DNA of 56,484 nt from Alphaproteobacteria bacterium UBA6187 (GCA_002422795.1 DITJ01000091.1:1-56484); one strand, 5' to 3'. Positions 793 through 56,408 are shown, numbered from the stretch's first letter. The notes: generated by a model from the letters alone, not told the origin. Numbers and translations: made by a program.

Positions 793-2385
793 ATGTCCGA
801 ACGAGTATATTTATACGATAGCACGCTCCGCGATGGCGCGCAAACTGAAGGTGTGGATTTTACCGCCGTTGATAAGCAGGATATTGCTAAAAGATTAGAC
901 CAACTAGGTATTGATTATATTGAAGGCGGATGGCCGGGCGCGAACCCTACTGATGATGAATTCTTTGCTCACCTTCCAAAAATGAAAAAAGCGCGTATCA
1001 GCGCCTTTGGCATGACCCGCCGCCCTGGAACTTCCGCAAGTAACGACCCCGGACTTGCCCCGCTACTAAATAGCGGCGTGGGTGTGATTTGCCTTGTGGG
1101 CAAAAGCTGGGATTTCCACGTTAAAAAAGCACTGGAAACTACGCTGGAAGAAAACCTTGCCATGATAAGCGACAGCATAAAATATGTTGTGCAGCAAGAC
1201 CGTGAAGCCGCACTTGATGCTGAGCATTTCTTCGATGGCTATAAAGCTAACCCCCAGTATGCACTAAAATGTGCGAAAGCCGCCTATGAAGCAGGTGCGC
1301 GCTGGGTGGTGCTATGTGATACTAACGGCGGCACACTGCCCCATGAAATTGAAGCAATAGTTGGGGAAGTTACTAAGCATATACCAGGCTCCCACCTTGG
1401 CATACATTGTCATAACGATACCGGCAATGCGGTTGCCAATTCACTCGCGGCAGTGCGCGCTGGCGTACGCCAGGTGCAGGGCACGGTAAATGGCGTGGGT
1501 GAACGCTGCGGCAATGCCAATTTAATAAGTATAATCCCTACCCTTATTTTGAAAATGGGTTTTACAACCGGGATAAAAGAATCGGAACTTCAACACTTAA
1601 CTAAAACCTCGCATTTCCTAGATGAAAAGCTGAATAAGGCTCAAGATAATTTCGCGCCTTATGTCGGCAAATCTGCATTCGCCCATAAAGGCGGCCTGCA
1701 TGTTTCTGCAATCATGAAAAACCCGAAATCCTATGAGCATATAGATCCGGCAACTATCGGCAATGTACGCAACATTCTGGTTTCCAGCCAGGCAGGACGC
1801 GCCAATATATTATCACGCCTTGAATCAGCAGGCTTTAAAACAGAAAATTATAGCAAGCATCTTATCAAAAAACTGGTGGATGAAGTAAAGCAGCGCGAAA
1901 GTGAAGGCTATGCGTTCGAGAATGCCGATGCCAGCTTTGAAGTGCTTGCCCACCGCATACTTGGCGACATTCCCACATATTTCCGCGTGGCTATATTCCG
2001 CGTTATTGATGAACGCCGCTGGGATAACGATGAAAAACTTATCACATTATCAGAAGCCACCGCCACCGTGCTGGTGGGCGGAGAAGAAGTGCTTACCGTT
2101 GCGCGCGGCAATGGCCCTGTAAATGCGCTAGACCAGGCCGTACGCAAAGCTTTGCAGAAAAAATACCCTATGGTAAATGACTTAAAACTGGTGGATTATA
2201 AAGTGCGTATCGTTAATTCCGGCGTTGGCACTGAGGCTATCACCCGCGTACTCATCGAAAGCGAAGATAAAGACGGCTCAAGATGGGTAACAGTTGGAGT
2301 TTCCGCAAATATCATCGATGCATCTTATAATGCCCTGCGCGATAGTATAACTTATAAACTTATTAAGAGTGGGTGTGTAGCCTAA
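793..2385 (+). CDS. cimA: (R)-citramalate synthase / LeuA-family aldolase
   Basis: LYDSTLRDGAQ N-terminal motif, GIHCHND metal site, and a C-terminal LeuA-type regulatory domain. The 530-aa length and EGGWPGANP are typical of the CimA clade. Confidence 0.8.
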   Translation: MSERVYLYDSTLRDGAQTEGVDFTAVDKQDIAKRLDQLGIDYIEGGWPGANPTDDEFFAHLPKMKKARISAFGMTRRPGTSASNDPGLAPLLNSGVGVICLVGKSWDFHVKKALETTLEENLAMISDSIKYVVQQDREAALDAEHFFDGYKANPQYALKCAKAAYEAGARWVVLCDTNGGTLPHEIEAIVGEVTKHIPGSHLGIHCHNDTGNAVANSLAAVRAGVRQVQGTVNGVGERCGNANLISIIPTLILKMGFTTGIKESELQHLTKTSHFLDEKLNKAQDNFAPYVGKSAFAHKGGLHVSAIMKNPKSYEHIDPATIGNVRNILVSSQAGRANILSRLESAGFKTENYSKHLIKKLVDEVKQRESEGYAFENADASFEVLAHRILGDIPTYFRVAIFRVIDERRWDNDEKLITLSEATATVLVGGEEVLTVARGNGPVNALDQAVRKALQKKYPMVNDLKLVDYKVRIVNSGVGTEAITRVLIESEDKDGSRWVTVGVSANIIDASYNALRDSITYKLIKSGCVA

Positions 2386-2395
2386 ACCCTCACCC

Positions 2396-3325
2396 CTAAA
2401 CCAACTTCTCGATTTCAGGAATTGATGTAAATAAATCCGCAACCAAACCATAATCAGCTACTTCAAAAATCGGAGCGTTTTCATCCTTATTAATGGCAAC
2501 GATGATTTTGCTGTCTTTCATGCCTGCTAAATGCTGGATAGCACCGGAAATTCCCACTGCAATATATAATTCAGGCGCAACAATTTTGCCGGTTTGCCCA
2601 ACCTGGTAATCATTGGAAATATAGCCCGCATCAACTGCCGCGCGGGATGCGCCAATTGCGCAATCATTAATTTTAGCAGCCAGCGATTCCAATATTTTGA
2701 AATTATCTTTGCTACCTAAGCCGCGCCCGCCGGAAATTACCACCCTTGCGCTGGAAAGATCAGGCCCTTTTGCAGCCGCCCCTTCATTCCTTACGAAAGA
2801 TACTGAATTAGTTGCACCTTTGCCGCTAATATTTTCCACCGCTGCATTTCCACCAAGTTCTGCTTTTGCAAATTTAGTGGTGCGGATGGTCATGATTTTT
2901 ATTTTATCAAGCGATTGTACCGTGGCTATTGCATTGCCTGCATATATCGGGCGCTTGAAACTATCTGGTGATATAATTTCCATAACATCAGTGATTTGCG
3001 CCACATCTAGGATAGCCGCCACGCGCGGCAGAAAATTCTTACCAAACGTATTTGAAGGGGCAAGAATATACGAATAATTCACCCCTAATTCTATAACCAG
3101 GGAAGCAATATTTTCTGCCAGGAAATGTTCATATGCAGAATCATCAGCACTTAAAACTTTTGTAACGCCGGAGATTTTAGCAGCCTCTTGTGCAGCACCG
3201 CTACAGTCTTTCCCCGCAACCAGAATGTGAATTTCTCCACCGATTTTCTTTGCCGCTTCCACTGTGTTTAATGTGGATGGGCTTATTGCGGTGTGGTTAT
3301 GTTCGGCTATTACTAGTATTGTCAT
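2396..3325 (-). CDS. etfA: Electron transfer flavoprotein alpha subunit
   Basis: 309 aa. C-terminal FAD-binding block [23 protein letters not shown]. Lies downstream of etfB. Confidence 0.95.
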
Positions 3326-4231: not shown

Positions 4232-4244
4232 TTTTAACCTTTTT

Positions 4245-4313
4245 AGAGTTCAGAGTTCGGAGTTCAGAGTTCAGTAATTAAAGAAGTATACTGAACTCTG
4301 AACTCCGAACTCT
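4245..4313. repeat. Heptamer-arm hairpin, gagttca family
   Basis: The arm agagttc agagttc ggagttc agagttc ag pairs with ctgaactctgaactccgaactct across a 16-nt AT-rich loop. Confidence 0.85.
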
Positions 4314-4318
4314 GACCA

Positions 4319-4504
4319 CTATCTTTTCACATAAAAATACATAAACGCAAGCATTATTATCGCCAAAAACTGGAACACAACACGCGCTATCATAAGCTTG
4401 TTGCTATATTTTTTATTTATTTTCCCACCCTTGGCAAGAACGAAGATACCTGCAATAAGGATTAAAATGGTGATAAATATAAGTATCAGTGGGATTGTTT
4501 GCAT
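4319..4504 (-). CDS. Twin-transmembrane-helix small protein (HIG1-domain-like)
   Basis: 61 aa with two hydrophobic helices separated by a basic loop (KGGKINKKYSNKLM). This is the usual alphaproteobacterial small-protein architecture. Confidence 0.6.
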   Translation of the reverse strand: MQTIPLILIFITILILIAGIFVLAKGGKINKKYSNKLMIARVVFQFLAIIMLAFMYFYVKR

Positions 4505-4540: not shown

Positions 4541-4702
4541 TTGTATAGGTTGCTTAAAGTGCAACGTCATTGCGAGGAGTCGGCCTCTTGGGAGTACGAC
4601 GTGGCAATCCATCGCATCGATGTTGCTAACACTGGATCGCCACTTCGTGCTCGCTTCGCTTCGACTCATCGCGATGACGTTGCACTTTAAGTAACCAATT
4701 AC
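4541..4702. repeat. Multi-hairpin palindromic element, gtcat...atgac family
   Basis: Outer inverted repeat ttgtataggttgcttaaagtgcaacgtcat / atgacgttgcactttaagtaaccaattacaa. Inner pair gacgtggcaatcca / tggatcgccac. It creates a spurious 65-aa ORF. Confidence 0.8.
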
Positions 4703-5904: not shown

Positions 5905-5921
5905 TAAAAAAGAAATATGTA

Positions 5922-6084
5922 TATACTCATTCTGTCTCAAACTACCGATTATAATGCCTCGTCTTTATTTGTTATATAAAAAAATTAAATCTTTGAAATA
6001 GAGCCGCTATTACTTCAGATTTAACTTTTCCCTATAACAAAAAATACTTGATTCTAATAGGCAGTTTGAAACAGAATGAGTATA
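5922..6084. mobile_element. MITE-like element, full-length copy (tatactcattct termini)
   Basis: 163 bp with terminal inverted repeats tatactcattctgtctcaaactaccgatt / ggcagtttgaaacagaatgagtata. It is near-identical to the reverse complement of 36283-36445. Confidence 0.85.
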
Positions 6085-10473: not shown

Positions 10474-10510
10474 AAGTTATATCCTAAAGTTAAGTTCTGG
10501 GATAAGATAA

Positions 10511-10591
10511 TTTAAGATTTAAGATTGTAAATTTAATATTTGAATATGGCTTCTTCTTTAAATCTTAAATCTACAATCTTAAATCTTAAAT
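10511..10591. repeat. Heptamer-arm hairpin, taagatt family
   Basis: tttaaga tttaaga ttgtaaa tttaa pairs with tttaaatcttaaatctacaatcttaaatcttaaat. Lies between the ntrY stop and the ntrX start. Confidence 0.85.
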
Positions 10592-10594
10592 CCC

Positions 10595-12469: not shown

Positions 12470-12594
12470 GTCATCCTGAACTAGTTTCAGGATCCATCTA
12501 GCAAAGTAATAGAAGACAGATTTGTATGCAACCACTTAATAAAAAGTTCTTTCTTTGTATTTCAAAATGGATCCTGAAATAAATTCAGTATGAC
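12470..12594. repeat. Palindromic element, gtcat...atgac family
   Basis: gtcatcctgaactagtttcaggatccat ... atggatcctgaaataaattcagtatgac. Overlaps the false 5' extension of ntrY. Confidence 0.7.
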
Positions 12595-12595
12595 G

Positions 12596-13570
12596 CTAGT
12601 TGATAGCCTTCTCAAAAAACTCCGTCAGTAAATCCTTCACAACTACCGAGTTGTTTTCCCTATTCATTTTATTCCTGAATTCTGCGCCACCCGACATTCC
12701 GGCGCTATACCAGCCCAAATGCTTACGGGCAAATTTAACGCCCACATCCTGCCCATAATGCTCTATCATTTCATCGTAATGCGCAAGGGCAATGGTTAAT
12801 TTTTGCTCAACATTCGGATCAGGCAATTTCTCCCCGGTTTTAAGATACTGGGTTGCCTGGTTTATAAACCACGGCCTGCCATACGCGCCTCTTCCTATCA
12901 TCACGCCATCTGCGCCAGACTGCGCAAGCGCATTATCCACATCTTCATAGGTTTTAATATCACCATTTACTATAACCGGAATTTTCACAGCATCCTTTAC
13001 ATTGCGAACGAAAGCCCAATCGGCGCTACCATTATACATCTGGCAGCGCGTGCGACCATGCACCACCACCATTTGTATACCGATATCTTCCGCAGCCTTT
13101 GCAAGCGAGGGGGCATTTTTATTATCCATATTCCAGCCAACACGCATTTTTACGGTTACCGGAATTTTCACTGCATTTACAACAGCTTCCAATATTTTCT
13201 TGGCAGTGCATTCATCCTTCATAAGCGCAGAGCCAGCATAGCCGTTCACAACTTTCTTTACCGGGCAACCGAAATTAATATCTATTATCTTTGCGCCTAA
13301 ATCTTCATTCAGTTTGGCGGCCTCCGCCATAACATCCGGCTCATTGCCTGCAAGCTGCACCGAGGTTAAATCTTCATTATCCGCAACTTCGCATTTCATA
13401 AGGCTTTCGCGGGTTTGCAATATCATTGCGCGGCTGGCAATCATTTCAGAAACAAGCAGGCCTGCCCCAAACCCCTTCACCAGCTTGCGGAATGGCTTAT
13501 CTGTAACCCCCGACATAGGCGCAAGGATTACATTTTCTTCAATTCTAAAATTACCGATTGTTATTGCCAT
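12596..13570 (-). CDS. dusB: tRNA-dihydrouridine synthase B (NifR3 family)
   Basis: [14 protein letters not shown] and INFGCP motifs. Start set at MAITIGNF (13570), because the upstream codons lie in a heptamer hairpin arm. Confidence 0.9.
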
Positions 13571-13573
13571 ATT

Positions 13574-13708
13574 AGAGTTCAGAGTCCCAAGTTCAGAGTT
13601 CAGAATATAGTGTAAAAACTTAACCATTAAAAATATTGCTACCTATACTCGTTACGTTATATATACTAATTATTGTATTTTTACAACTGAACTCTGAACT
13701 CTGAACTC
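13574..13708. repeat. Heptamer-arm hairpin, gagttca family
   Basis: agagttc agagtcc caagttc agagttc ag pairs with ctgaactctgaactctgaactc across an ~83-nt AT-rich loop. Lies in the divergent dusB/ispDF region. Confidence 0.8.
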
Positions 13709-13720
13709 CGGCAACTAAAC

Positions 13721-15031
13721 ATGAACCAATACAACACCATCTGCCTTATAGTCGCAGCCGGAAGCGGGGCAAGGCTTGGAAATGAAATTCCAAAGCAATA
13801 TCTTATGCTTGGCAATAAACCAATACTCAGGCATTCCGCAGAAGCATTCCTGAATCATCCGCAAATTGATGCAGTTTGCGTTATTTATAACCCAGCCCAT
13901 CAAGAATTTTATGATAATGCGGTAGGGGATTTAAACTTATACCGAGTTGCATTCAAAGAACGAGTAGGAGTGCTAGGCGAGGAGGGCGCAAGCGTAGGCT
14001 TACTACGTGCGCACCGACAAGACCGCTGCACGACAACCTCTTTCAAAGAATGCAACTCGGTATTACTCCCTCCGGTTGCGGGAGGCGCTACCAGGCAGGA
14101 ATCCTCCCGCCTTGGGATTGAGGCAATTGCAAAACATAACCCAAAAAAAGTGCTGATACACGACGGTGCGCGCCCATTTGTAGATAGCCGCATTATAACT
14201 GATATAATAAATGCACTTGATGAAACATGCGCCGCCATCCCTGCCCTGCCTGTGGAAGATACTATTAAGGAAATAGAAAATGGCAGGATTATAAAAACTA
14301 TTCCAAGGGAAAATTTGTTCCGGGCGCAGACTCCGCAGGGGTTTGTATATAGCGAAGTTAGAAGTGGCGAGCATACTTCTAACTTCTCACTCCTAACTTC
14401 TCACTTCACCGATGATGCCTCCATATTCGAACACTTACAAAAAGAAGTCCGCATCATTCCAGGCTCACAAAACAACTTTAAAATCACCACCACAGAAGAT
14501 TTACAAAGGGGAGAAATTCTTATGTCACAAAATGTTGAGACAAGAGTAGGAATGGGTTTTGATGCCCATAAATTCTGCGAACCAAAAATGGATGAAAATA
14601 ACTTCATAATGCTTTGCGGAGTGGCAGTTCCACATGATAAAAGCCTGGAGGGGCATTCCGATGCTGATGTTGGACTGCATGCGGCGGTGGACGCAATACT
14701 CGGCGCAATCGCAGCAGGCGATATAGGCACGCATTTCCCGCCAAGCGATATGCAGTGGAAAGGCGCTGATTCCAGTATTTTTCTAGCACATGCCGCTAAA
14801 CTTTTAAAAGAACGTGGTGGAGAAATTATTAATATTGATATAACCATTATTTGTGAAAGACCAAAAATATTACCGCACCGCGATAAAATGTGTGGGACAA
14901 TTGCAAAAATACTTGGTATTGAGCAATCACGTGTTAGTGTTAAAGCTACTACTACTGAAGGAATGGGCTTTACCGGGCGGAAAGAGGGAATTGCCGCGCA
15001 GGCAATTGTTAGTATAAGGATTAAGGAATAA
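13721..15031 (+). CDS. ispDF: Bifunctional MEP cytidylyltransferase / MEcPP synthase, carrying an in-frame palindromic insert
   Basis: IspD motifs (VAAGSGARLG, GGATRQES) and IspF motifs (RVGMGFDAHKF, GHSDADVGLHA). A ~41-aa insert is encoded by a palindromic repeat at 13939-14063. Confidence 0.9.
   Translation: MNQYNTICLIVAAGSGARLGNEIPKQYLMLGNKPILRHSAEAFLNHPQIDAVCVIYNPAHQEFYDNAVGDLNLYRVAFKERVGVLGEEGASVGLLRAHRQDRCTTTSFKECNSVLLPPVAGGATRQESSRLGIEAIAKHNPKKVLIHDGARPFVDSRIITDIINALDETCAAIPALPVEDTIKEIENGRIIKTIPRENLFRAQTPQGFVYSEVRSGEHTSNFSLLTSHFTDDASIFEHLQKEVRIIPGSQNNFKITTTEDLQRGEILMSQNVETRVGMGFDAHKFCEPKMDENNFIMLCGVAVPHDKSLEGHSDADVGLHAAVDAILGAIAAGDIGTHFPPSDMQWKGADSSIFLAHAAKLLKERGGEIINIDITIICERPKILPHRDKMCGTIAKILGIEQSRVSVKATTTEGMGFTGRKEGIAAQAIVSIRIKE
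13939..14063. repeat. RPE-like palindromic element, copy 1 (in frame within ispDF)
   Basis: Outer inverted repeat ataccgagttgcattc / gaatgcaactcggtat, core taggagtgctaggcgaggagggcgcaagcgtagg, central hairpin cgtag-gctta-ctacg. No stop codon in the host frame. Confidence 0.85.
14354..14407. repeat. Heptamer-arm hairpin inside the ispD coding region
   Basis: gaagttagaag-tggcgagcata-cttctaacttc, extended by the 7-mers cttctca ctcctaa cttctca cttc. Confidence 0.6.
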
Positions 15032-16445: not shown

Positions 16446-16796
16446 ATGCCAAATGTTCTGCGTCATAGGAAGCGGGAAGATTTTTTAAGGGTAAGGAACG
16501 CTAATAAAAGCGTTTCTGCCGCAGGTCTGGTGCTGCAGGTTGCAACCAGCAATATAGATGACGCCTCATCTATAAGGGTTGGCTTTACAGCAACTTCCAA
16601 AATCGGCAATGCAGTAGTAAGAAACCGCATTAAAAGAAGATTACGCGCCGTTGTGCGTGAGGTCATGGGCAAATCTGCTATTCCTGCACATGATTATGTT
16701 ATTATCGGCAGGTTTCGCACCGCAGACCGAGAATTTACCAGCCTGGTAAAAGATTTAAAATACGCACTCCATAATACAGGCACTTTTAAAAAGTAA
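16446..16796 (+). CDS. rnpA: RNase P protein component
   Basis: 116 aa, basic, VRNRIKRRLR motif. Conserved position after rpmH. Confidence 0.85.
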   Translation: MPNVLRHRKREDFLRVRNANKSVSAAGLVLQVATSNIDDASSIRVGFTATSKIGNAVVRNRIKRRLRAVVREVMGKSAIPAHDYVIIGRFRTADREFTSLVKDLKYALHNTGTFKK

Positions 16797-16856
16797 GATT
16801 TAAGATTGTAGATTTAAGATTTAAAATCTTCAATCTTAAATCTACAATCTTAAATC
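16794..16856. repeat. Heptamer-arm hairpin, taagatt family
   Basis: taagatt taagatt gtagatt taagatt taaa pairs with aatcttaaatctacaatcttaaatc. Lies between the rnpA stop and the yidD start. Confidence 0.85.
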
Positions 16857-16867
16857 AGCATAATCCC

Positions 16868-17113
16868 ATGTTTGCAAAACTAGCCATAATCCTGATAAAT
16901 ATCTACAGATACTGCATTTCCCCGCTCAATCCTCCCTGCTGCCGCTATGTCCCGACATGTTCGGAATATGCAATTGATGCCTTTAAGCGTTATAACCTTG
17001 CAAAAGCTGTATTTTTGACTATAAAGCGCATAGGCAGTTGTAATCCGTGGGGCGGAAGCGGTTTTGACCCAGTTCCGGAAAAACCTGTAAAAAACAAAGA
17101 CGAAGCGTTGTAA
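16868..17113 (+). CDS. yidD: Membrane protein insertion efficiency factor
   Basis: 81 aa. YRYCISP...CRYVPTCSEYA signature. Confidence 0.9.
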   Translation: MFAKLAIILINIYRYCISPLNPPCCRYVPTCSEYAIDAFKRYNLAKAVFLTIKRIGSCNPWGGSGFDPVPEKPVKNKDEAL

Positions 17114-17127
17114 TCGACAGTTTTAAT

Positions 17128-17140
17128 AAGAATGAGTATA
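17128..17140. repeat. Solo MITE terminus
   Basis: aagaatgagtata two nt before the yidC ATG. Matches the right terminus of the MITE family. Confidence 0.4.
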
Positions 17141-21847: not shown

Positions 21848-21884
21848 AATCTTCTTTCTTATAAGAAAACTTTTCGATATTATA

Positions 21885-21925
21885 TATACTCATCCTGACT
21901 CAAACTGACGATTAGAATGAGTATA
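21885..21925. mobile_element. Collapsed mini-copy of the MITE family
   Basis: tatactcatcctgactcaaactgacgattagaatgagtata: both termini are present and the ~120-bp interior is missing. Confidence 0.7.
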
Positions 21926-21949
21926 GTTTATTCCAACTAAGGTATAGTA

Positions 21950-26863: not shown

Positions 26864-26891
26864 GAACCTCTTCGTTTGAAGGGGTTTTTTT
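26864..26891 (+). terminator. Rho-independent terminator after dgt
   Basis: Stem gaacctcttc / gaaggggttt (one G-T pair), loop gttt, followed by a T-run. Confidence 0.7.
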
Positions 26892-27145
26892 ATGATTATA
26901 GTGTTTTCGCTTTTCAATAATGATAGGAAATCGAGTCGATGTGTAGGTGAGCTACATGAGACGATGATCGACGCATCATTATTGAAAATGGGAAATACTA
27001 TATTTATTAACTGGTTCTTTGGCAATTACAGTACGTATTACGTCCAAAACTCAGGTGAAATAATCTATATCTCTACATATACATTACATCTTAACCAATT
27101 ATTAATATATTCGCAGTAGAATGTGATAAATATTGAGGGGTTAGT

Positions 27146-29398
27146 ATGAAAAAGATATTTATCACAACTACATTTCCATTATTCGCTTCGTTGCTATTTT
27201 CAGAAGCAAAAGCAATTGATTACTCAATACAAAACACCCTAAATGGTGCTTTTAAAGCACAAAGCGACTCAGGCGTATATGGAAAAGGCGTTGTGTTTGG
27301 AGTTATAGACACAGGCATAGCCCCGGACTGGATTGGCTTTAACGGCAATATTGATACAGCAGCCAGCAAGTGCATGATATCAGCATGTAAAAGTTCCTTT
27401 GATGACCATGGCCACGGCACATTTGTAGCCAGTGAAATAATTGGCTCTGTAAATGGCACTACTATGAAGGGTATAACGCCTGAGGCAACAGCTTTCGGTG
27501 TTAAGGTATTGAATGCCAAAGGCTCCGGCACAGCAACGGATGTTGCCAATGGCATACGTTATGCTGCGGATAACGGCGCTAATATACTGAACTTAAGTTT
27601 AACATTCTTACCCACCACTGACATTGTAAATGCAATTAATTATGCTGCGTCAAAGAATGTTATAACTGTATTTGCCGGTGGCAATAGCAACAAGATATTA
27701 CTAAATGGCGCTACCACCACAGGCTTTACCGATGCAGCCTTGCGCCGCCTTATGTTTGCAGGCTCCACCAACGATAAAATGGCTATAAGCAGCTTCAGCA
27801 ATAAACCAGGTACAACCGGAAAATTTACCGCAAAAGATAGTAAAGCGTCTTATTTATATAATTCACTATGGATAATGGCAGATGGTGAAAATATCTGGGG
27901 AGCAAGCACCTACAATACATCACAATATGGTTATAGCTACGTTACGCAGATGTCCGGCACTTCCATGGCTGCCCCGCAACTAGCAGGCGCTGCCGGTATG
28001 CTGGTATCACGCTGGCCATTTTTACTTAATACCGGCAATGTAGTTACAATCCTAACCAAAACCACCCAGGATTTAGGCGCAAAAGGCATAGATGGAATTT
28101 ACGGCACGGGCTTCCTTAGGATTGATACGGCAATGCAGCCTATCGGCGCACTCACAGTTCCGGTAAGCGGCAAGATGGTTCCTGTAACTAATGTGCAGAT
28201 AACCACAAGTGGCCCGGTTGGTAATCTGGGTAATTTATCCTCTGCTTTGCAAAAGGCGGTGGCTTACGATAGCTATAACCGCGATTATAATGTGGCACTT
28301 GCCGCCGCAATATCGCCAAAACCTGCAACATCGACAAGTAGTTCCGCAGCATCAAAAGTAGACAAAAAGAAAGCTAAGAAAGCTAAAAAATTTACTGCAA
28401 CAGGTGAAGATTCATGGATGCTATCTTCTTTTGAAAATGCTCCTGTGAATCCATCGGAAATTCAATCTGCATCCCCACAAAGCAGCTATGGTTTAGTGCA
28501 GGATCCTACACAGCCCAACCAATATGAATGGTCGGTGGGCTTTTCAAATGATGGTAACTATTCTGGCGCAGGGCAAGGTACTGGCGCGGCATCAATGTTC
28601 AACGATGCCCGCTGGAATGAAAAAACCGCCTTTGCCAGTGGTGATTCCGCAGGTGCAGGGGAAGTATTCGGCTTAATACAAAATGCAAATTTTTCTGCAA
28701 AGGCCTTTAATATCACACCTTCTTCACGCCTTTCATTTGAAATGATGACCACCCAAAATATGGGGGCGACCGATTCAGTTAATGATAGCTCCGCCCATGG
28801 TATTGCTATGGGATATACCTTCAACCCTACCAAGAAAATCGCTGTATCGCTTACAAGCTCTATACTTGATGAAAATAATATGTTACTCGGCTCTACCGCT
28901 TCTGGGCCTTTATCACTGGGCAAATCCAGCTATACAACATCTTTTGGCGCCGGAACTAATATTAAGCTTGGTAATGGCTACCAGCTTGGTTTCGAGGCCA
29001 GTTATTTTACAACAGGAGCATCAAGCAATAATGATAGCCTGATTACCAGCATTTCCCCTCTTTCTGGCGCAAGCTTCAACCTTGCCTTAAGCAAAGAACA
29101 ATTATTTGATAAAAACGATGAAATAAGTATCGCGCTTAGGAAACCCTTACGCATTTATTCCGGTACTGCTAATGTAGCCATACCAGTTGGTACGGATATG
29201 GACGGCAACCCTATCATACAGAATGAACTTGTAAGCGTAGTTCCAACCGGAAACGAAACAAATTTCGACCTTGGATACAGCCTTGCCTTAAGCGACTATA
29301 CACAAACAGGTTTTAACCTTTCATACCGGAATGATGCCGACAATATTGCAGGCTATAACGATAGCGCTGTTATGGTGACATTCGACTTTAAGTTCTAA
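27146..29398 (+). CDS. Subtilisin-like (S8) serine protease autotransporter
   Basis: Signal peptide and the S8 catalytic triad blocks VIDTGI / HGHGTFVAS / GTSMAAPQLAG. A Lys-rich linker is followed by a C-terminal beta-domain with alternating hydrophobic residues ending VTFDFKF. Confidence 0.8.
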   Translation: MKKIFITTTFPLFASLLFSEAKAIDYSIQNTLNGAFKAQSDSGVYGKGVVFGVIDTGIAPDWIGFNGNIDTAASKCMISACKSSFDDHGHGTFVASEIIGSVNGTTMKGITPEATAFGVKVLNAKGSGTATDVANGIRYAADNGANILNLSLTFLPTTDIVNAINYAASKNVITVFAGGNSNKILLNGATTTGFTDAALRRLMFAGSTNDKMAISSFSNKPGTTGKFTAKDSKASYLYNSLWIMADGENIWGASTYNTSQYGYSYVTQMSGTSMAAPQLAGAAGMLVSRWPFLLNTGNVVTILTKTTQDLGAKGIDGIYGTGFLRIDTAMQPIGALTVPVSGKMVPVTNVQITTSGPVGNLGNLSSALQKAVAYDSYNRDYNVALAAAISPKPATSTSSSAASKVDKKKAKKAKKFTATGEDSWMLSSFENAPVNPSEIQSASPQSSYGLVQDPTQPNQYEWSVGFSNDGNYSGAGQGTGAASMFNDARWNEKTAFASGDSAGAGEVFGLIQNANFSAKAFNITPSSRLSFEMMTTQNMGATDSVNDSSAHGIAMGYTFNPTKKIAVSLTSSILDENNMLLGSTASGPLSLGKSSYTTSFGAGTNIKLGNGYQLGFEASYFTTGASSNNDSLITSISPLSGASFNLALSKEQLFDKNDEISIALRKPLRIYSGTANVAIPVGTDMDGNPIIQNELVSVVPTGNETNFDLGYSLALSDYTQTGFNLSYRNDADNIAGYNDSAVMVTFDFKF

Positions 29399-35063: not shown

Positions 35064-36206
35064 TTAACATCTTGAAATTGCCTTCTTATTTCCTACAAGG
35101 TTTTGAAATAATTTGGCTTCCTCTTGGTCACTATATTTATAAGATGGTTCCTGAATTTCATTTGGAACTTGTAATTCTGTATCGGAAGAAGCTATATTTC
35201 TTGCAGCACGGCTATTTTTATCACTACCTTTATCAGATGATTCTCTTGCAAGTTCTAAAGTAGAGAAAGGGTTAAATGCAATTACACCAATAGAAAGTGA
35301 GCTAGCATCATAATTTTTAGGTTTCAAAAACTCATCTGATATAGAAAAGGCAATGCAGCTTTTAAGATCTACAGTTTCATTTGGAACTTGCAACTTTGTA
35401 TCTGCCTTGGGATGTAATGGACTGTAAGCAATAGTATAAAAAAGATCTATACTAGGTTCATAAGAATGAGCTACATTATGTGCACCACTATCTTTAATAA
35501 CGCGAATTTCATTCAAAGCTTCTGAAAGTGGCGTTGTAACATTTCCCAAACTTCTAATTATATTAACATTGCTTATAATTAAATCACTTGGAATATGCCT
35601 CTTAGCATCTAAATAAGCTGTGGTTGTTATGCAAGTAGCAACACCACACCCCATTAGTGCTGCTAAAAACGGGTTAACACTTGTTAGAGCGCTAATTAAG
35701 CTTCCTGCACCTATTCCAGATATAGGAGACATGCCAAAGCGCATATAATCCAGGTAATTAACTTCATCAGGATACTTCTTTCCACACTGGTAAGACGCAA
35801 TAGTCGCATATAAAAATATACCGCAATATAAACCAGCACCACCACCTAAAGGTAAACTACTAGAAAGAGGAAGAGTTGGGTCACATCCCGATGCGCATAT
35901 TCCCCAGAAAAGGCCATTTACACCCCAGGTGCCAGAAAGTATAGCACATTTATCTATGCCTACAATTTGCTCCCTTGCCATTAATTGACTTTCTTGTTCC
36001 TGGACTATTGCAGATAATCTATTTGCTCTTGTATATTCTCTTTCATACTGTGGCGGCAATATTACGGGTTGTTCTGTTGCCATTTCATGCAGTGGTGACG
36101 ATACTGGTTGCTCTGTTACAACTCCGTTCAAACTTGGGTGTGGCTGTAACTCTATTTCTTTATATTCATTATTATCTTTTGAATTGTGAGCTGCTCTTTC
36201 TTGCAT
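35064..36206 (-). CDS. Hypothetical membrane protein (no recognisable family)
   Basis: ORF with Gly/Cys-rich hydrophobic segments and short internal repeats (TEQPV x2, LQVPNE x2). The ATG at 36206 has an AGGA 8 nt upstream. The tracked ORF extends to a TTG at 36251. Confidence 0.5.
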   Translation of the reverse strand: MQERAAHNSKDNNEYKEIELQPHPSLNGVVTEQPVSSPLHEMATEQPVILPPQYEREYTRANRLSAIVQEQESQLMAREQIVGIDKCAILSGTWGVNGLFWGICASGCDPTLPLSSSLPLGGGAGLYCGIFLYATIASYQCGKKYPDEVNYLDYMRFGMSPISGIGAGSLISALTSVNPFLAALMGCGVATCITTTAYLDAKRHIPSDLIISNVNIIRSLGNVTTPLSEALNEIRVIKDSGAHNVAHSYEPSIDLFYTIAYSPLHPKADTKLQVPNETVDLKSCIAFSISDEFLKPKNYDASSLSIGVIAFNPFSTLELARESSDKGSDKNSRAARNIASSDTELQVPNEIQEPSYKYSDQEEAKLFQNLVGNKKAISRC

Positions 36207-36282: not shown

Positions 36283-36445
36283 TATACTCATTCTGTTTCA
36301 AACTGCCGATTAGAATCAAGTATTTTTTGTTATAGGAAAAAGTTAAATCTGAAGTAATAGTGGCCCTATTTCAAAGATTTAACTTTTTTATATAACAAAT
36401 AAAGACGAGGCATTATAATCGGCAGTTTGAAACAGAATGAGTATA
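36283..36445. mobile_element. MITE-like element, full-length copy (inverted relative to 5922-6084)
   Basis: 163 bp with the same termini and interior as the first copy, a few mismatches by eye. Lies just upstream of the family-less ORF at 35064. Confidence 0.85.
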
Positions 36446-36523
36446 TATAAAAGATATCTAATTTTTGCAAGCCCCACGCCTCTTTGATTGGCTTCTGCTA
36501 TACATGCGGAAGTTCGTCAACCA

Positions 36524-53733: not shown

Positions 53734-55128
53734 ATGGAACTAATTTGCAATAAAATATTTGATGAAATTAATATTGGCGATTCCGCCAGTCTTTCCCGCA
53801 CACTAAGCATGGGTGATATTACTGCTTTTGCAGCCATTACCGGTGATTATAATCCGGCGCATCTGGATGCAGAATATGCTAAAAGTGATATGTTCCACAA
53901 AATTGTAGCGCATGGCATGTGGGGCGGTTCATTATTTTCCGCCTTGCTAGGCACTGAACTTCCTGGGCCCGGGACAATTTATTTAAGCCAGACTCTAAAG
54001 TTCTTAAAACCTGTTTCCCTTGGTGACAGGATTACAGTAACTGTAACAGTTACACAGAAGAAGGCAGAAGGGCATAAAATAATATTAGATTGCGCTTGCG
54101 TGAACCAAAAGGATGATAAGGTTATAGCAGGCACCGCAGAAGTGATAGCGCCAATAGAAAAAGTCGAGTACAAGAGAGTGGCATTATCACAAGTGGAATT
54201 GCGTGAGCCGCGCCGCACTTATTATCAGCAAATAATTGATAAGAAACATGGGCTTGCACCACTTATTACCGCAGTTGTGCATCCGGTAGATAGGAATTCT
54301 CTTGAAGGCGCGATAGAGGCCGCTAAAGAAGGGTTGATTATACCAATACTTATAGGACCGGAAAATAAAATCCGCGCAGTAGCTGCGGCGGAAGGATTAG
54401 ATATTTCCCCTTATGAAATTATAGCAACTAAGCATAGTAATGCAGCAGCAGAAAAAGCCGTGGAACTTGCCCGCCAAGGTAAGGTGGAAGCTTTAATGAA
54501 AGGTAAAATCCATACGGATGAATTAATGCACCCGGTTGTAGATAGAGTAACAGGGCTTCGCACAGGCAGGCGCATGAGCCATGTTTTCATGGTGGATTCC
54601 CCCAATTATCATAAACCATTTTTCATGACAGATGCAGCAATTAACATTGCCCCCAACCTCATGGATAAAAAAGATATTACACAAAATGCGATTGATTTAT
54701 TCATAGCACTTGGACTTGGCACTCCGAAAGTTGCTATTATTTCTGCGGTAGAAACTGTAAATGAAAAAATCCCATCAACCCTGGATGCAACCGCCTTGTG
54801 TAAAATGGCAGAGCGCGGGCAGATAACCGGCGGAATCCTTGATGGCCCTCTGGCACTTGATAATGCTTTTTCTAAAGAATCTGCGGCAGCAAAAAATATA
54901 GTATCTTCCGTTGCTGGAGATGCTGATATTATCATAGTTCCGGATGTTGAATCTGGAAATATGCTATATAAGCAGCTTTCCTTTTTATCTGGTGCGGAAG
55001 CCGCAGGAATTGTGCTTGGTAGCCGGGTGCCGATTATCCTTACCAGCCGCTCCAGCAAGGTTTTAACACGCAAAGCATCCAGCGCAATTGCCCTTATTTA
55101 TGCGCGCTCTAAAAAGAAAATTGTATGA
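53734..55128 (+). CDS. pta: Bifunctional MaoC-dehydratase / phosphate acyltransferase (PTA_PTB)
   Basis: N-terminal hot-dog fold (FAAITGDYNPAHLD...VAHGM) fused to a ~300-aa PTA_PTB domain (VPIILTSRS). ATGA overlap with ackA. Confidence 0.85.
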   Translation: MELICNKIFDEINIGDSASLSRTLSMGDITAFAAITGDYNPAHLDAEYAKSDMFHKIVAHGMWGGSLFSALLGTELPGPGTIYLSQTLKFLKPVSLGDRITVTVTVTQKKAEGHKIILDCACVNQKDDKVIAGTAEVIAPIEKVEYKRVALSQVELREPRRTYYQQIIDKKHGLAPLITAVVHPVDRNSLEGAIEAAKEGLIIPILIGPENKIRAVAAAEGLDISPYEIIATKHSNAAAEKAVELARQGKVEALMKGKIHTDELMHPVVDRVTGLRTGRRMSHVFMVDSPNYHKPFFMTDAAINIAPNLMDKKDITQNAIDLFIALGLGTPKVAIISAVETVNEKIPSTLDATALCKMAERGQITGGILDGPLALDNAFSKESAAAKNIVSSVAGDADIIIVPDVESGNMLYKQLSFLSGAEAAGIVLGSRVPIILTSRSSKVLTRKASSAIALIYARSKKKIV

Positions 55129-56408
55129 AAATTATACTCACCATTAATGCAGGCTCATCCAGTATAAAATTTGCCCTATACCAATTCATTATCAAAACAA
55201 CACTAGGAGTGCAAGGCAAAGAGGGCGTAAGCGTAGTTAATCCTACGTGCGCACCGATGCGCCGCAGCACAACAACGTGTTGTGAAGATAATGGATTGGT
55301 ATTATATGAGAAGGAAGGATGCAGGCTGCTATATAATGGTTCTATAAATAATTTATTGGAAGCCCCAATATTTAAAGTGCGGGATGATAAGCACCAGAGC
55401 GTTATTGAAAAAAGCCTGCCCGGTACAGGGCATATAAGTGCCTTAGAAGCATTGGTGCAATGGATAGGGGTAAATGCTAAAGGAATAAAAATATCAGCAA
55501 TAGGCCACCGCGTTGTGCATGGCGGCAAAAGTTATTCACAGCCGGTTATAATCACACCGGAAATAGTTACGGAACTTGAAAAACTAATTCCCCTTGCGCC
55601 ACTACATCAGCCTTACAATGTGGAAGCAATAAAAATTATGATGGCTTTATTTCCTTCGGCTCCGCAAATTGCCTGTTTCGATACTGCTTTCCACAGCACT
55701 GGAAACCATCTTGCCCGGCTTTATGCCATGCCGCGCAAATATATGGAAGAAGGCATTATCCGCTATGGCTTTCACGGGCTTTCTTATGAATATATTGCAT
55801 CCATGCTGCCTGAATTTGCAGGAGAAAAAGCCGATAGTAAAGTAATAGTTGCCCATTTAGGCAATGGCTCCAGCATGTGTGCTATGTATAAGCGTAAATC
55901 TGTTGCAACCACTATGGGGTTTACAGCCCTTGAAGGGCTGGTGATGGGTACAAGGGCTGGCAGCATTGACCCTGGCATTATATTATATCTACAGCAACAC
56001 CATAAATTAAGCGTGGGTGAGGTTGAGCATTTACTTTATAAGGAATCCGGACTGCTTGGTGTATCTGGAATCAGCCATGATGTGGAAGTGCTGCAAAAAA
56101 GTGATAGCCCCAACGCCAAAGAAGCGCTGGATTTATTCTGCTACCGGGCTAGCCAGGAGCTTGCAAAGCTTGTATCATCACTGCAAGGCATTGATGTTTT
56201 GGTATTTACCGCAGGTATCGGCGAGAATTCTATTTTAATACGCAGACAAATATGTGAATTAACAGCATGGCTGGGAATCAAAATTGATGAGGACGCGAAT
56301 GCCCTGCATAAACCACAGATAAGCCTGCCGACAAGCCCTGTTGCAGTTTATGTAATTCCTACCAATGAAGAATTAATGATAGCTAAGTATGTATTAAACC
56401 TGCTTTAA
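55125..56408 (+). CDS. ackA: Acetate kinase carrying an in-frame palindromic insert
   Basis: INAGSSSIKF, GFHGLSYEY, HLGNGSS and FTAGIGENS motifs. A ~40-aa insert after the first strand is encoded by the repeat at 55181-55299. Confidence 0.9.
   Translation: MKIILTINAGSSSIKFALYQFIIKTTLGVQGKEGVSVVNPTCAPMRRSTTTCCEDNGLVLYEKEGCRLLYNGSINNLLEAPIFKVRDDKHQSVIEKSLPGTGHISALEALVQWIGVNAKGIKISAIGHRVVHGGKSYSQPVIITPEIVTELEKLIPLAPLHQPYNVEAIKIMMALFPSAPQIACFDTAFHSTGNHLARLYAMPRKYMEEGIIRYGFHGLSYEYIASMLPEFAGEKADSKVIVAHLGNGSSMCAMYKRKSVATTMGFTALEGLVMGTRAGSIDPGIILYLQQHHKLSVGEVEHLLYKESGLLGVSGISHDVEVLQKSDSPNAKEALDLFCYRASQELAKLVSSLQGIDVLVFTAGIGENSILIRRQICELTAWLGIKIDEDANALHKPQISLPTSPVAVYVIPTNEELMIAKYVLNLL
55181..55299. 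repeat. RPE-like palindromic element, copy 2 (in frame within ackA)
   Basis: Outer ccaattcattatc..caacac / gtgttgtgaagataatggattgg, core taggagtgcaaggcaaagagggcgtaagcgtag, central hairpin cgtag-ttaatc-ctacg. Confidence 0.85.

Follow-up and report, generated by a model that had tools for sequence, protein, structure and literature searches.

An in-frame palindromic repeat element in the acetate kinase gene of an uncultured alphaproteobacterium and its sister copy in ispDF

The in-frame insertion in ackA

The window analyzed in this work is the whole metagenomic contig DITJ01000091.1 of Alphaproteobacteria bacterium UBA6187 (GCA_002422795.1), with a length of 56,484 bp and about 41% GC. It contains an ackA gene, encoding acetate kinase (AckA), that carries within its coding sequence a palindromic repeat element, and a sister copy of this element is located in the ispDF gene of the same contig (Table 1). 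The translation of the ackA open reading frame (ORF) opens MKIILTINAGSSSIKFALYQFIIKTTLGVQGKEGVSVVNPTCAPMRRSTTTCCEDNGLVLYEKEG..., and its closest solved relatives are the AckA enzymes of T. maritima and M. thermophila. The protein starts with the first two beta-strands (MKIILTINAGSSSIKFALY), continues with the sequence QFIIKTTLGVQGKEGVSVVNPTCAPMRRSTTTCCEDNGLVLY, and then the conserved part resumes at EKEGCRLLY. The corresponding DNA of the element (TACCAATTCATTATC...GATAATGGATTGGTA) is a near-perfect palindrome.

The 42 extra residues are absent from all seven closest AckA homologues (385-395 amino acids; 59-75% identity over alignable columns; alignment A1), which pass straight from ...FA(I/L)Y(E/Q) to ...C(R/K)L(L/I)Y. 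The empty site is also preserved at the nucleotide level in a relative (L011), which reads TTT ACC CTA TAT GAG CAA AAA GGA TGT where the window reads TTT GCC CTA, then 126 nt, then TAT GAG AAG GAA GGA TGC. The comparison of these junctions delimits an insertion of exactly 126 nt, i.e., the 123-nt palindrome followed by TTA. The insertion is preceded by CTA (55176-55178), and the TTA (55302-55304) forms its last 3 nt; thus, the target duplication fits either TA with a 124-nt element or 3 nt with a 123-nt element. The first-pass annotation, made from the sequence alone, had described here a palindrome of about 119 bp at 55181-55299. Its palindromic nature holds, but the element extends to 123 nt, and the earlier coordinates fall just inside its ends.

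At -56.6 kcal/mol, the RNA fold of the region 55170-55310 has a z of -7.0, and no equally good fold was obtained with 200 shuffled sequences. Folded as DNA, the 123-mer of ackA gives z = -4.8, and the second copy of the window, tested beside it, z = -5.4.

The ackA gene is full-length, without frameshift or stop codon, and its product shares 75% identity with the nearest homologue at alignable positions. None of the 52 columns invariant across 80 homologues has changed in AckA, and residues N8, R129, D186, H217, N247, R277, and E415 align with the M. thermophila catalytic residues N7, R91, D148, H180, N211, R241, and E384. The AlphaFold 2 (AF2) model has a mean predicted local distance difference test (pLDDT) score of 90.6 and superposes on 1G99 with a TM-score of 0.90 and a root-mean-square deviation of 2.2 A. 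Only residues 32-61 fall below a pLDDT of 50; they form a coil between strands 13-21 and 66-75, that is, in the beta2-beta3 turn. Two other AckA proteins (P0012 and P0022) contain unrelated insertions of about 25-45 amino acids at the same turn, which argues that this position is permissive. We have considered whether the P0012 insertion is also a palindromic element, and this was rejected, since its DNA (L013, 2519-3826) gives small local hairpins and not one long palindrome. In the AF2 model of IspDF (pLDDT 89.3), low confidence appears only across the insert (amino acids 74-115), with residues 88-108 below 50. Both inserts are therefore predicted by the models to lie in surface loops, with the fold and the catalytic residues of the host proteins kept, and AckA probably tolerates its insert. 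In agreement with these predictions, the ackA ORF is intact and looks functional.

Table 1. Coordinates of the elements, their parts, their host genes, and the repeat-containing spacers of the window
Feature	Coordinates	Strand	Evidence or remark
ackA ORF, 427 amino acids, host of the element	55125..56408	+	Pfam Acetate_kinase E = 1.7e-111; PDB AckA matches down to E = 3e-79
Whole ackA insertion, 126 nt = 42 codons, AckA residues 19-60	55179..55304	+	Protein alignment A1; empty site in L011
Palindromic element, ackA copy, 123 nt, ends TACCAATTC...GGATTGGTA	55179..55301	+	Folds, alignment A6, nhmmer with the family model (E = 1.5e-27)
5' basal arm, 25 nt, pairs with 55277-55301	55179..55203	+	Folds, pair counts
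Conserved core, 77-81% identity between lineages	55204..55276	+	Alignments
Invariant apical hairpin inside the core, GCGTAG / CTACGT	55231-55236 / 55243-55248	+	
Apical loop TTAATC, 6 nt (+1 indel; 5 nt in every other copy)	55237..55242	+	
Patch with the -1 indel (base missing between 55261 and 55262) and 3 substitutions	55249..55262	+	A6 columns 80-88; DNA fold
3' basal arm, 25 nt	55277..55301	+	Folds, pair counts
ispDF ORF, 436 amino acids, host of the sister copy	13721..15031	+	Pfam IspD + YgbB; PDB 1W55
Whole ispDF insertion, 126 nt, IspDF residues 74-115	13940-14065	+	
Sister element, 123 nt, ends TACCGAGTTGCATTC...GAATGCAACTCGGTA, flanked TTA/TTA	13940..14062	+	
maoC-pta fusion gene	53734..55128	+	Pfam MaoC_dehydratas + PTA_PTB; directly upstream of ackA
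Spacers with other palindromic repeats	4238-4321, 4545-4699, 10503-10592, 12470-12594, 13567-13720, 16794-16862, 26889-27010, 42090-42715, 46861-47101		
Gene content, ordinary for an alphaproteobacterium	window		cimA, etfAB, trkA, ntrYX, dusB, ispDF, yidC, nadE, clpA, exopolysaccharide (EPS) export, pta-ackA

The sister copy in ispDF and the repeat family

A low-stringency BLAST comparison of the ackA region with the window returned a single other match, located in ispDF, and the window thus contains only two copies of the element, both intragenic. The earlier proposal that ackA holds a second in-frame copy of the ispD element is well founded: the two copies belong to the same family, share orientation and codon phase (5' junction ...(C/T)TA TAC C.., 3' junction ..G GTA TTA), and add 126 nt each. 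The close match of their cores was also correctly noticed, since 29 of 33 positions are identical between 55204-55236 in ackA and 13965-13997 in ispD, where the shared frame encodes GVQGKEGVSV and GVLGEEGASV, respectively. All four nucleotide differences in this shared-frame core alter the amino acid and, judged by these sequences, the element-encoded peptide is under no visible constraint.

The sister insertion has its own empty sites. The 42 residues are missing at the insertion point in all 13 aligned IspDF orthologues (alignment A5), and in a relative (L008) that conserves the gene order trkA-ntrX-ntrY-dusB / ispDF-pgpA-cinA...yidC, with about 75% nucleotide identity to the window, the BLAST alignment leaves 6 nt at the site occupied by 132 nt in the window.

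Two other observations concern IspDF. A small perfect hairpin (GAAGTTAGAAGT-loop-ACTTCTAACTTC; 14352-14387; fold z = -4.3) occupies residues ~212-223, in a part of the protein whose length varies among orthologues, and may be a further, shorter palindromic insertion or replacement. In addition, the IspDF homologues P0132 and P0123 of alignment A5 end in the C-terminal tails ...SPSPLRGEGRGGGDAVGN and ...ELCHPREGGVDKV, which, to judge by common repetitive extragenic palindromic (REP)-type sequences, look as if in these relatives a repeat element had been joined to the end of the gene and translated with it.

Further members of the family were sought with an exact-pattern scan built on the apical core (AAGCGTAG N3-9 CTACGTGCGCACC). 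Among 185,579 GTDB species representatives, the pattern was found in three genomes, i.e., two metagenome-assembled genomes (MAGs) titled 'Alphaproteobacteria bacterium' and one titled 'Rickettsiaceae bacterium', none of them titled Rickettsia, and it was also found in four contigs of one JGI metagenome, Ga0206831. The pattern had no match in IMG/VR, and the element had no BLAST match among the PLSDB plasmids. Altogether, two coding copies were obtained from the window and seven intergenic copies from other organisms. The four Ga0206831 copies (L004-L007) differ by 1-2 positions over 127 nt, occupy four separate intergenic loci with TA on both sides, and contain 2-3 stop codons in the frame used by ackA and ispDF. 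This is the signature of a recently active MITE (miniature inverted-repeat transposable element), in an organism other than that of the window. Their termini (TATAGTG...) presumably recall the start of the terminal inverted repeat (TIR) of the Correia element. In one of these contigs (L007), the copy lies between tandem paralogous genes (602-1324 and 1561-2373, minus strand) whose products have lipoprotein-like N-termini.

The copies of L001, L002, and L003 are outside credible ORFs, and these relatives vary in overall length, whereas 123 nt is the length of the two window copies and also of the four Ga0206831 copies. Concerning the target duplication, TA/TA flanks the Ga0206831 copies, and CTA..TTA and TTA..TTA flank the window copies (TA + 124 nt or TTA + 123 nt). 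A family model searched with nhmmer recovered its members with E-values from 1e-27 to 1e-38 (7e-29 and 1.5e-27 for the window copies) and found no further copy in the ~190 kb searched. Every lineage folds as a long single hairpin (z = -4.5 to -6.2). Rfam gave no gathering-level match in the window and only a chance-level one near the site (E = 8.4). At the peptide level, a word-indexed profile search with the translated element gave 18 candidates, none with E <= 10, and from 1.84 billion representatives an exhaustive phmmer search recovered no more than two weak matches, both to unrelated repeats, although these negatives are weak ones, because representatives at 50% identity would hide insert-bearing members. 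The repeat family appears to be undescribed; as regards families 1-10 of the Rickettsia palindromic elements (RPEs), indirect evidence comes from the core-pattern scan, with none of its three GTDB genomes titled Rickettsia.

The reverse frame of the element is stop-free in every lineage (..TLTPS.P.TPS..), and this explains why an antisense ORF of 139 amino acids (55109-55528, minus strand) crosses the ackA element. This ORF is most likely spurious, but the open reverse frame would allow an in-frame insertion in the opposite orientation too.

The alignment of the two window copies with four further ones (A6) contains no gaps over 123 positions except two, both in the ackA copy. The apical loop of this copy has 6 nt (TTAATC), compared with 5 nt (GCTTA) in ispD, and about 20 nt downstream of the loop one base is missing at CGATGCG-CCGC. 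The first-pass annotation had noticed both the longer loop and the shorter following segment, as well as the divergence of the peptides between them (VVNPTCAPMRR in ackA and GLLRAHRQDR in ispD) and their return to a common frame at ..(S/C)TTT, and all of this was reproduced. Nine codons of the ackA element are consequently read in another register. With a search pattern that permitted loops of 3-9 nt, a 5-nt loop was found in all five other lineages (ispD, the Ga0206831 family, L001, L002, and L003), and the base deleted in ackA is kept in all three lineages that can be aligned downstream. Therefore, both indels are derived in the ackA copy.

When the loop change alone was undone in silico, a stop codon appeared at residue 74, and when the deletion alone was undone, at residue 54. 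Undoing both yielded an open frame (...GVSVVNLRAHR...) in the register of the other lineages; thus, the un-indelled register is also stop-free in ackA, and neither indel was needed. The deletion patch accumulates three substitutions and one deletion within five positions and forms a local perfect palindrome, GCGCA-CCGA-TGCGC (55249-55262), that exists only in the ackA copy. This pattern resembles a single template-switch mutation.

The conservation of the element is unevenly distributed, since the inner 73 nt are 77-81% identical between lineages and the 25-nt terminal arms only 36-50%. The apical stem of 6 bp is invariant. Within copies, 96% of the arm cells form standard pairs, a value that falls to 35-52% once the two arms are put out of register by 1-3 columns; both sides have changed in 16 of the 25 arm pairs, and 0 of 500 shuffles reach the observed arm-pairing values, in statistics of A6 that come from three independent lineages and with a shuffle control that ignores relatedness. 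For these sequences, we regard a conserved core flanked by co-varying arms as a lead rather than a result.

Origin of the insertion and comparison with known elements

As a whole, these data are best explained if ackA carries an in-frame copy of a non-autonomous, hairpin-forming, MITE-like mobile repeat that acts like the RPEs, and we estimate the probability of this explanation at about 0.85. The element would have inserted between CTA and TAT, a TA-containing site in the codons of the beta2-beta3 turn of AckA, where the element and its target duplication would add 126 nt. As no stop codon is met in this orientation and phase, ackA would stay open, and AckA would gain a surface excursion of 42 residues, probably disordered, at the far end of the N-terminal sheet. 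The sister copy would have done likewise in a loop of IspDF. Purifying selection on ackA would explain why only a length-balanced, stop-free version is seen there, in which the additional base of the loop and the base lost downstream would cause nine codons to be read in the other register before the frame returns.

Several points weigh against this explanation. The scan of the window ORFs revealed neither a transposase nor an autonomous parent of the element, and consequently it is the distribution of the copies that suggests that the element is mobile. Both copies of this organism are intragenic, and the intergenic copies come only from other organisms. The target-site duplication is ambiguous, since TA fits the Ga0206831 copies, but for the window copies a further T or a duplication of 3 nt has to be assumed. 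The expression and activity of the insert-bearing AckA are putative; a second ackA might exist elsewhere in the genome, beyond this 56-kb contig, and a hairpin as strong as -56.6 kcal/mol, located 55 nt into the ORF, could impair expression.

Of the features of the RPE-like class, those found here are a single stem-loop of ~100-150 bp, an in-frame insert that is absent from the orthologues, and, as predicted by the models, a preserved host protein with the insert at its surface. According to two publications (PMC2229807, PMC10969869), RPEs measure 105-146 bp and lie in frame in many conserved Rickettsia genes, and the guanylate kinase (Gmk) that contains one of them is translated and active; for R. 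conorii, 19 ORFs interrupted by RPEs are reported (PMC2229807, PMC10969869, PMC1458961). The RPEs of R. bellii number 526, and coding genes contain 53 of these (PMC1458961). RPE-1 and the related families come from Ogata et al. (2000, 2002), as summarized in PMC2229807 and PMC10969869. The present element and the RPEs have in common a long stem-loop palindrome of 100-150 bp that interrupts alphaproteobacterial housekeeping genes, conserved ones, without breaking their frame, coding copies that share orientation and frame, an insert in a surface loop (predicted for the present element), the lack of a known transposase, and some copies ending in TA. In contrast to the RPEs, the present host is not a Rickettsia, its GC content is 41%, its nearest relatives are uncultured alphaproteobacteria, and the element shows an inverted conservation, with a conserved apical core and variable arms.

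The MITEs with TA duplication (Correia/NEMIS of Neisseria, RUP, ERIC; PMC2229807) are of similar size to the element and, like it, have inverted repeats at their termini, TA at either end, and a transcript that forms a long hairpin. They also have stop-free variants inside genes and stop-containing variants between genes, as is the case of the intergenic Ga0206831 copies with their 2-3 stops. However, typical MITEs have conserved TIRs and a known or suspected parent insertion sequence (IS), whereas in the present element conservation is lowest in the arms, and the window yielded no parent IS. The REP palindromes mobilized by REP-associated tyrosine transposases (RAYTs) measure 20-40 bp and carry the tetranucleotide GTAG or CGTC at the stem foot (PMC3733652). 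They share with our element in-frame intragenic palindromes and the GTAG/CTAC in the conserved hairpin, but a REP/RAYT origin was rejected, since the element has 123 nt, its GTAG tops the apical stem, and the window lacks a RAYT gene. The QMITE elements of Coxiella burnetii are MITEs of an intracellular bacterium with a reported effect on protein evolution (PMC5896051), but they belong to the Gammaproteobacteria, a different phylum-level lineage, and are unrelated in sequence. Intragenic MITEs with ORFs include Coxiella QMITE1, according to the review PMC10969869, and intragenic stop-free variants are known for the 107-bp Correia element, ERIC, and YPAL (PMC2229807), and for REPs (PMC3733652). 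Thus, the class of mechanism is already known, and the novelty lies in the apparently undescribed repeat family, in the lineage of its host, and in the two genes that carry it. The phenomenon of coding palindromes, best known from Rickettsia, is extended to an uncultured alphaproteobacterial lineage and to AckA and IspDF. For annotation purposes, the two 42-residue insertions should be considered as derived from repeats, and neither as lineage-specific domains nor as misassemblies.

The paired indels require a separate discussion. Their natural reading is selection to keep ackA open, and the first-pass annotation had concluded that such selection acted on the ORF and not on the inserted peptide. 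The second half of this proposal stands, because the peptide is not conserved. The indel pair is real, and either indel alone truncates AckA; the outgroup copies, which polarize the +1/-1 pair, indicate an insert constrained only to stay open and not to encode a given peptide. Compensation after the insertion is not established. In an ORF that looks essential, no copy can persist unless its indels add up to a multiple of three, and with only one event available, the argument comes close to a truism of survivorship. The data fit no worse with a donor copy in which both changes were already present and which was filtered when it inserted, and we favor that the indels arose before the insertion or in a single template-switch event. 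It is less likely, although the first-pass annotation read the indels in this way, that the element inserted in the ancestral register, that a frameshift then inactivated ackA, and that a second nearby indel restored the frame under selection. Such a history would fit two derived indels, unique to the ackA copy and only ~20 nt apart, with a stop-free register between them and a truncated AckA if either is taken alone. However, its intermediate would be an AckA null, the change was not forced because the un-indelled register is open too, the -1 belongs to a palindrome-making, multi-base patch that looks like one template-switch event, possibly in the donor copy, and a single case is inseparable from variation that preceded the insertion. 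The length balance might also reflect a constraint of the element itself, e.g., the hairpin geometry needed for mobilization, and not selection on the host ORF. As 123 nt is kept in four intergenic copies, length conservation may indeed be a property of the element, and the ackA, ispD, and Ga0206831 copies keep this length without other gaps in spite of arms that are only 36-50% identical. We consider this unlikely, since, structurally, a base gained in the loop is no counterweight to one lost in an arm, the four near-identical intergenic copies represent one lineage, and the overall lengths of L001-L003 differ.

The two remaining alternatives concern the state of the host gene and the role of the palindrome, and both seem very improbable. 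A co-opted palindrome, acting as a regulator at the mRNA level (e.g., an RNase III or translational-pausing site in pta-ackA) or as a functional protein loop, would agree with the conservation of the apical core across distant alphaproteobacteria, with the maintained complementarity of the arms, and with published evidence that RNase III can target the hairpins of MITEs (PMC10969869). But the same element is found in unrelated genes and in intergenic DNA, its peptide is not conserved, the relatives do well without it, and there is no Rfam match. The chances are, if anything, slightly lower that ackA and/or ispDF are decaying pseudogenes in which the element happens not to have brought a stop yet. 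The insertion close to the 5' end, the strong mRNA hairpin, and the many repeat families that invade this genome could be explained in this way, but not an intact full-length ORF that keeps the 52 invariant columns and the catalytic residues at 75% identity to the nearest homologue, a conserved pta-ackA operon structure, and an AF2 model of high confidence outside the insert.

Beyond the proposed origin of the ackA insert as a MITE-like repeat, the architecture of the element allows a more speculative proposal, which we find doubtful at present. The family could represent an undescribed alphaproteobacterial superfamily of palindromes in which recognition would probably fall on the apical hairpin/core (GCG-Y-AAGCGTAG, a 5-nt loop, and CTACGTGCGCACCG), the part that is conserved, while the 25-bp arms turn over almost completely and remain complementary. 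If so, the usual rule of MITEs, i.e., conserved TIRs and a free interior, would be reversed, and the arms would point to the mobilization of a folded single strand by a hairpin-recognizing enzyme or to the correction of one arm by the other inside the hairpin. The subfamily of the window (124 + 2 = 126 nt, stop-free) would then be pre-adapted to colonize coding sequences. This core/arm architecture could inform how such elements, RPEs included, are recognized and moved, and it is the sole aspect that we consider worth a genome-wide follow-up.

Genomic context and other repeats of the window

The gene content and synteny of the window fit a larger alphaproteobacterial genome, and not Rickettsia, with pta-ackA, ispDF, a citramalate synthase gene, and EPS genes present. 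The proteins nearest to those of the window share 67-75% identity and come from metagenomic contigs. The start codon of ackA overlaps the stop codon of maoC-pta by 4 nt (ATGA), and both genes probably form one operon. The pair recurs in relatives, and the MaoC-like N-terminal dehydratase fused to the phosphotransacetylase is found 5' of ackA in three related contigs.

The intergenic spacers of the window are crowded with other palindromic repeat families. One of them has 165 nt (TATACTCATTCTG...CAGAATGAGTATA), with copies at 5920-6084 and 36283-36447 that are 96% identical and in opposite orientation, and partial copies at 17088-17140, 21870-21932, and 38136-38186, all of them intergenic. Further palindromic families (GAGTTCAGAGTTCAG, TAAGATTTAAGATT, GTCATTGCGAGGAG, GTCATCCCGGGAT/CCGGGATCCAT...) occupy almost every longer intergenic spacer, and the spacer 42090-42715 is a nested cluster of repeats. 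In L008, the relative with conserved gene order, none of these other repeat motifs was detected over 21 kb. Only the ackA/ispDF family, of all the strong hairpin elements in the window, is intragenic (2 of 2 copies); other intragenic hairpin candidates, located in etfA (3027-3119), orf395 (35231-35393), orf293 (39936-40056), and an S8 protease gene (27600-27662), were rejected with fold z values of -0.8 to -2.9.

The longest dusB ORF (minus strand) starts within a GAGTTCAGAGTTCAG palindrome (13567-13627), and either the true start of dusB is downstream or the repeat supplies its N-terminus. Finally, the end of the contig (56409-56484), straight after the ackA stop codon, falls within a copy of a repeat family (...CACGTGTCCCC...) that is also present at 42325-42390 and 42395-42440, and the assembly probably broke at this repeat.

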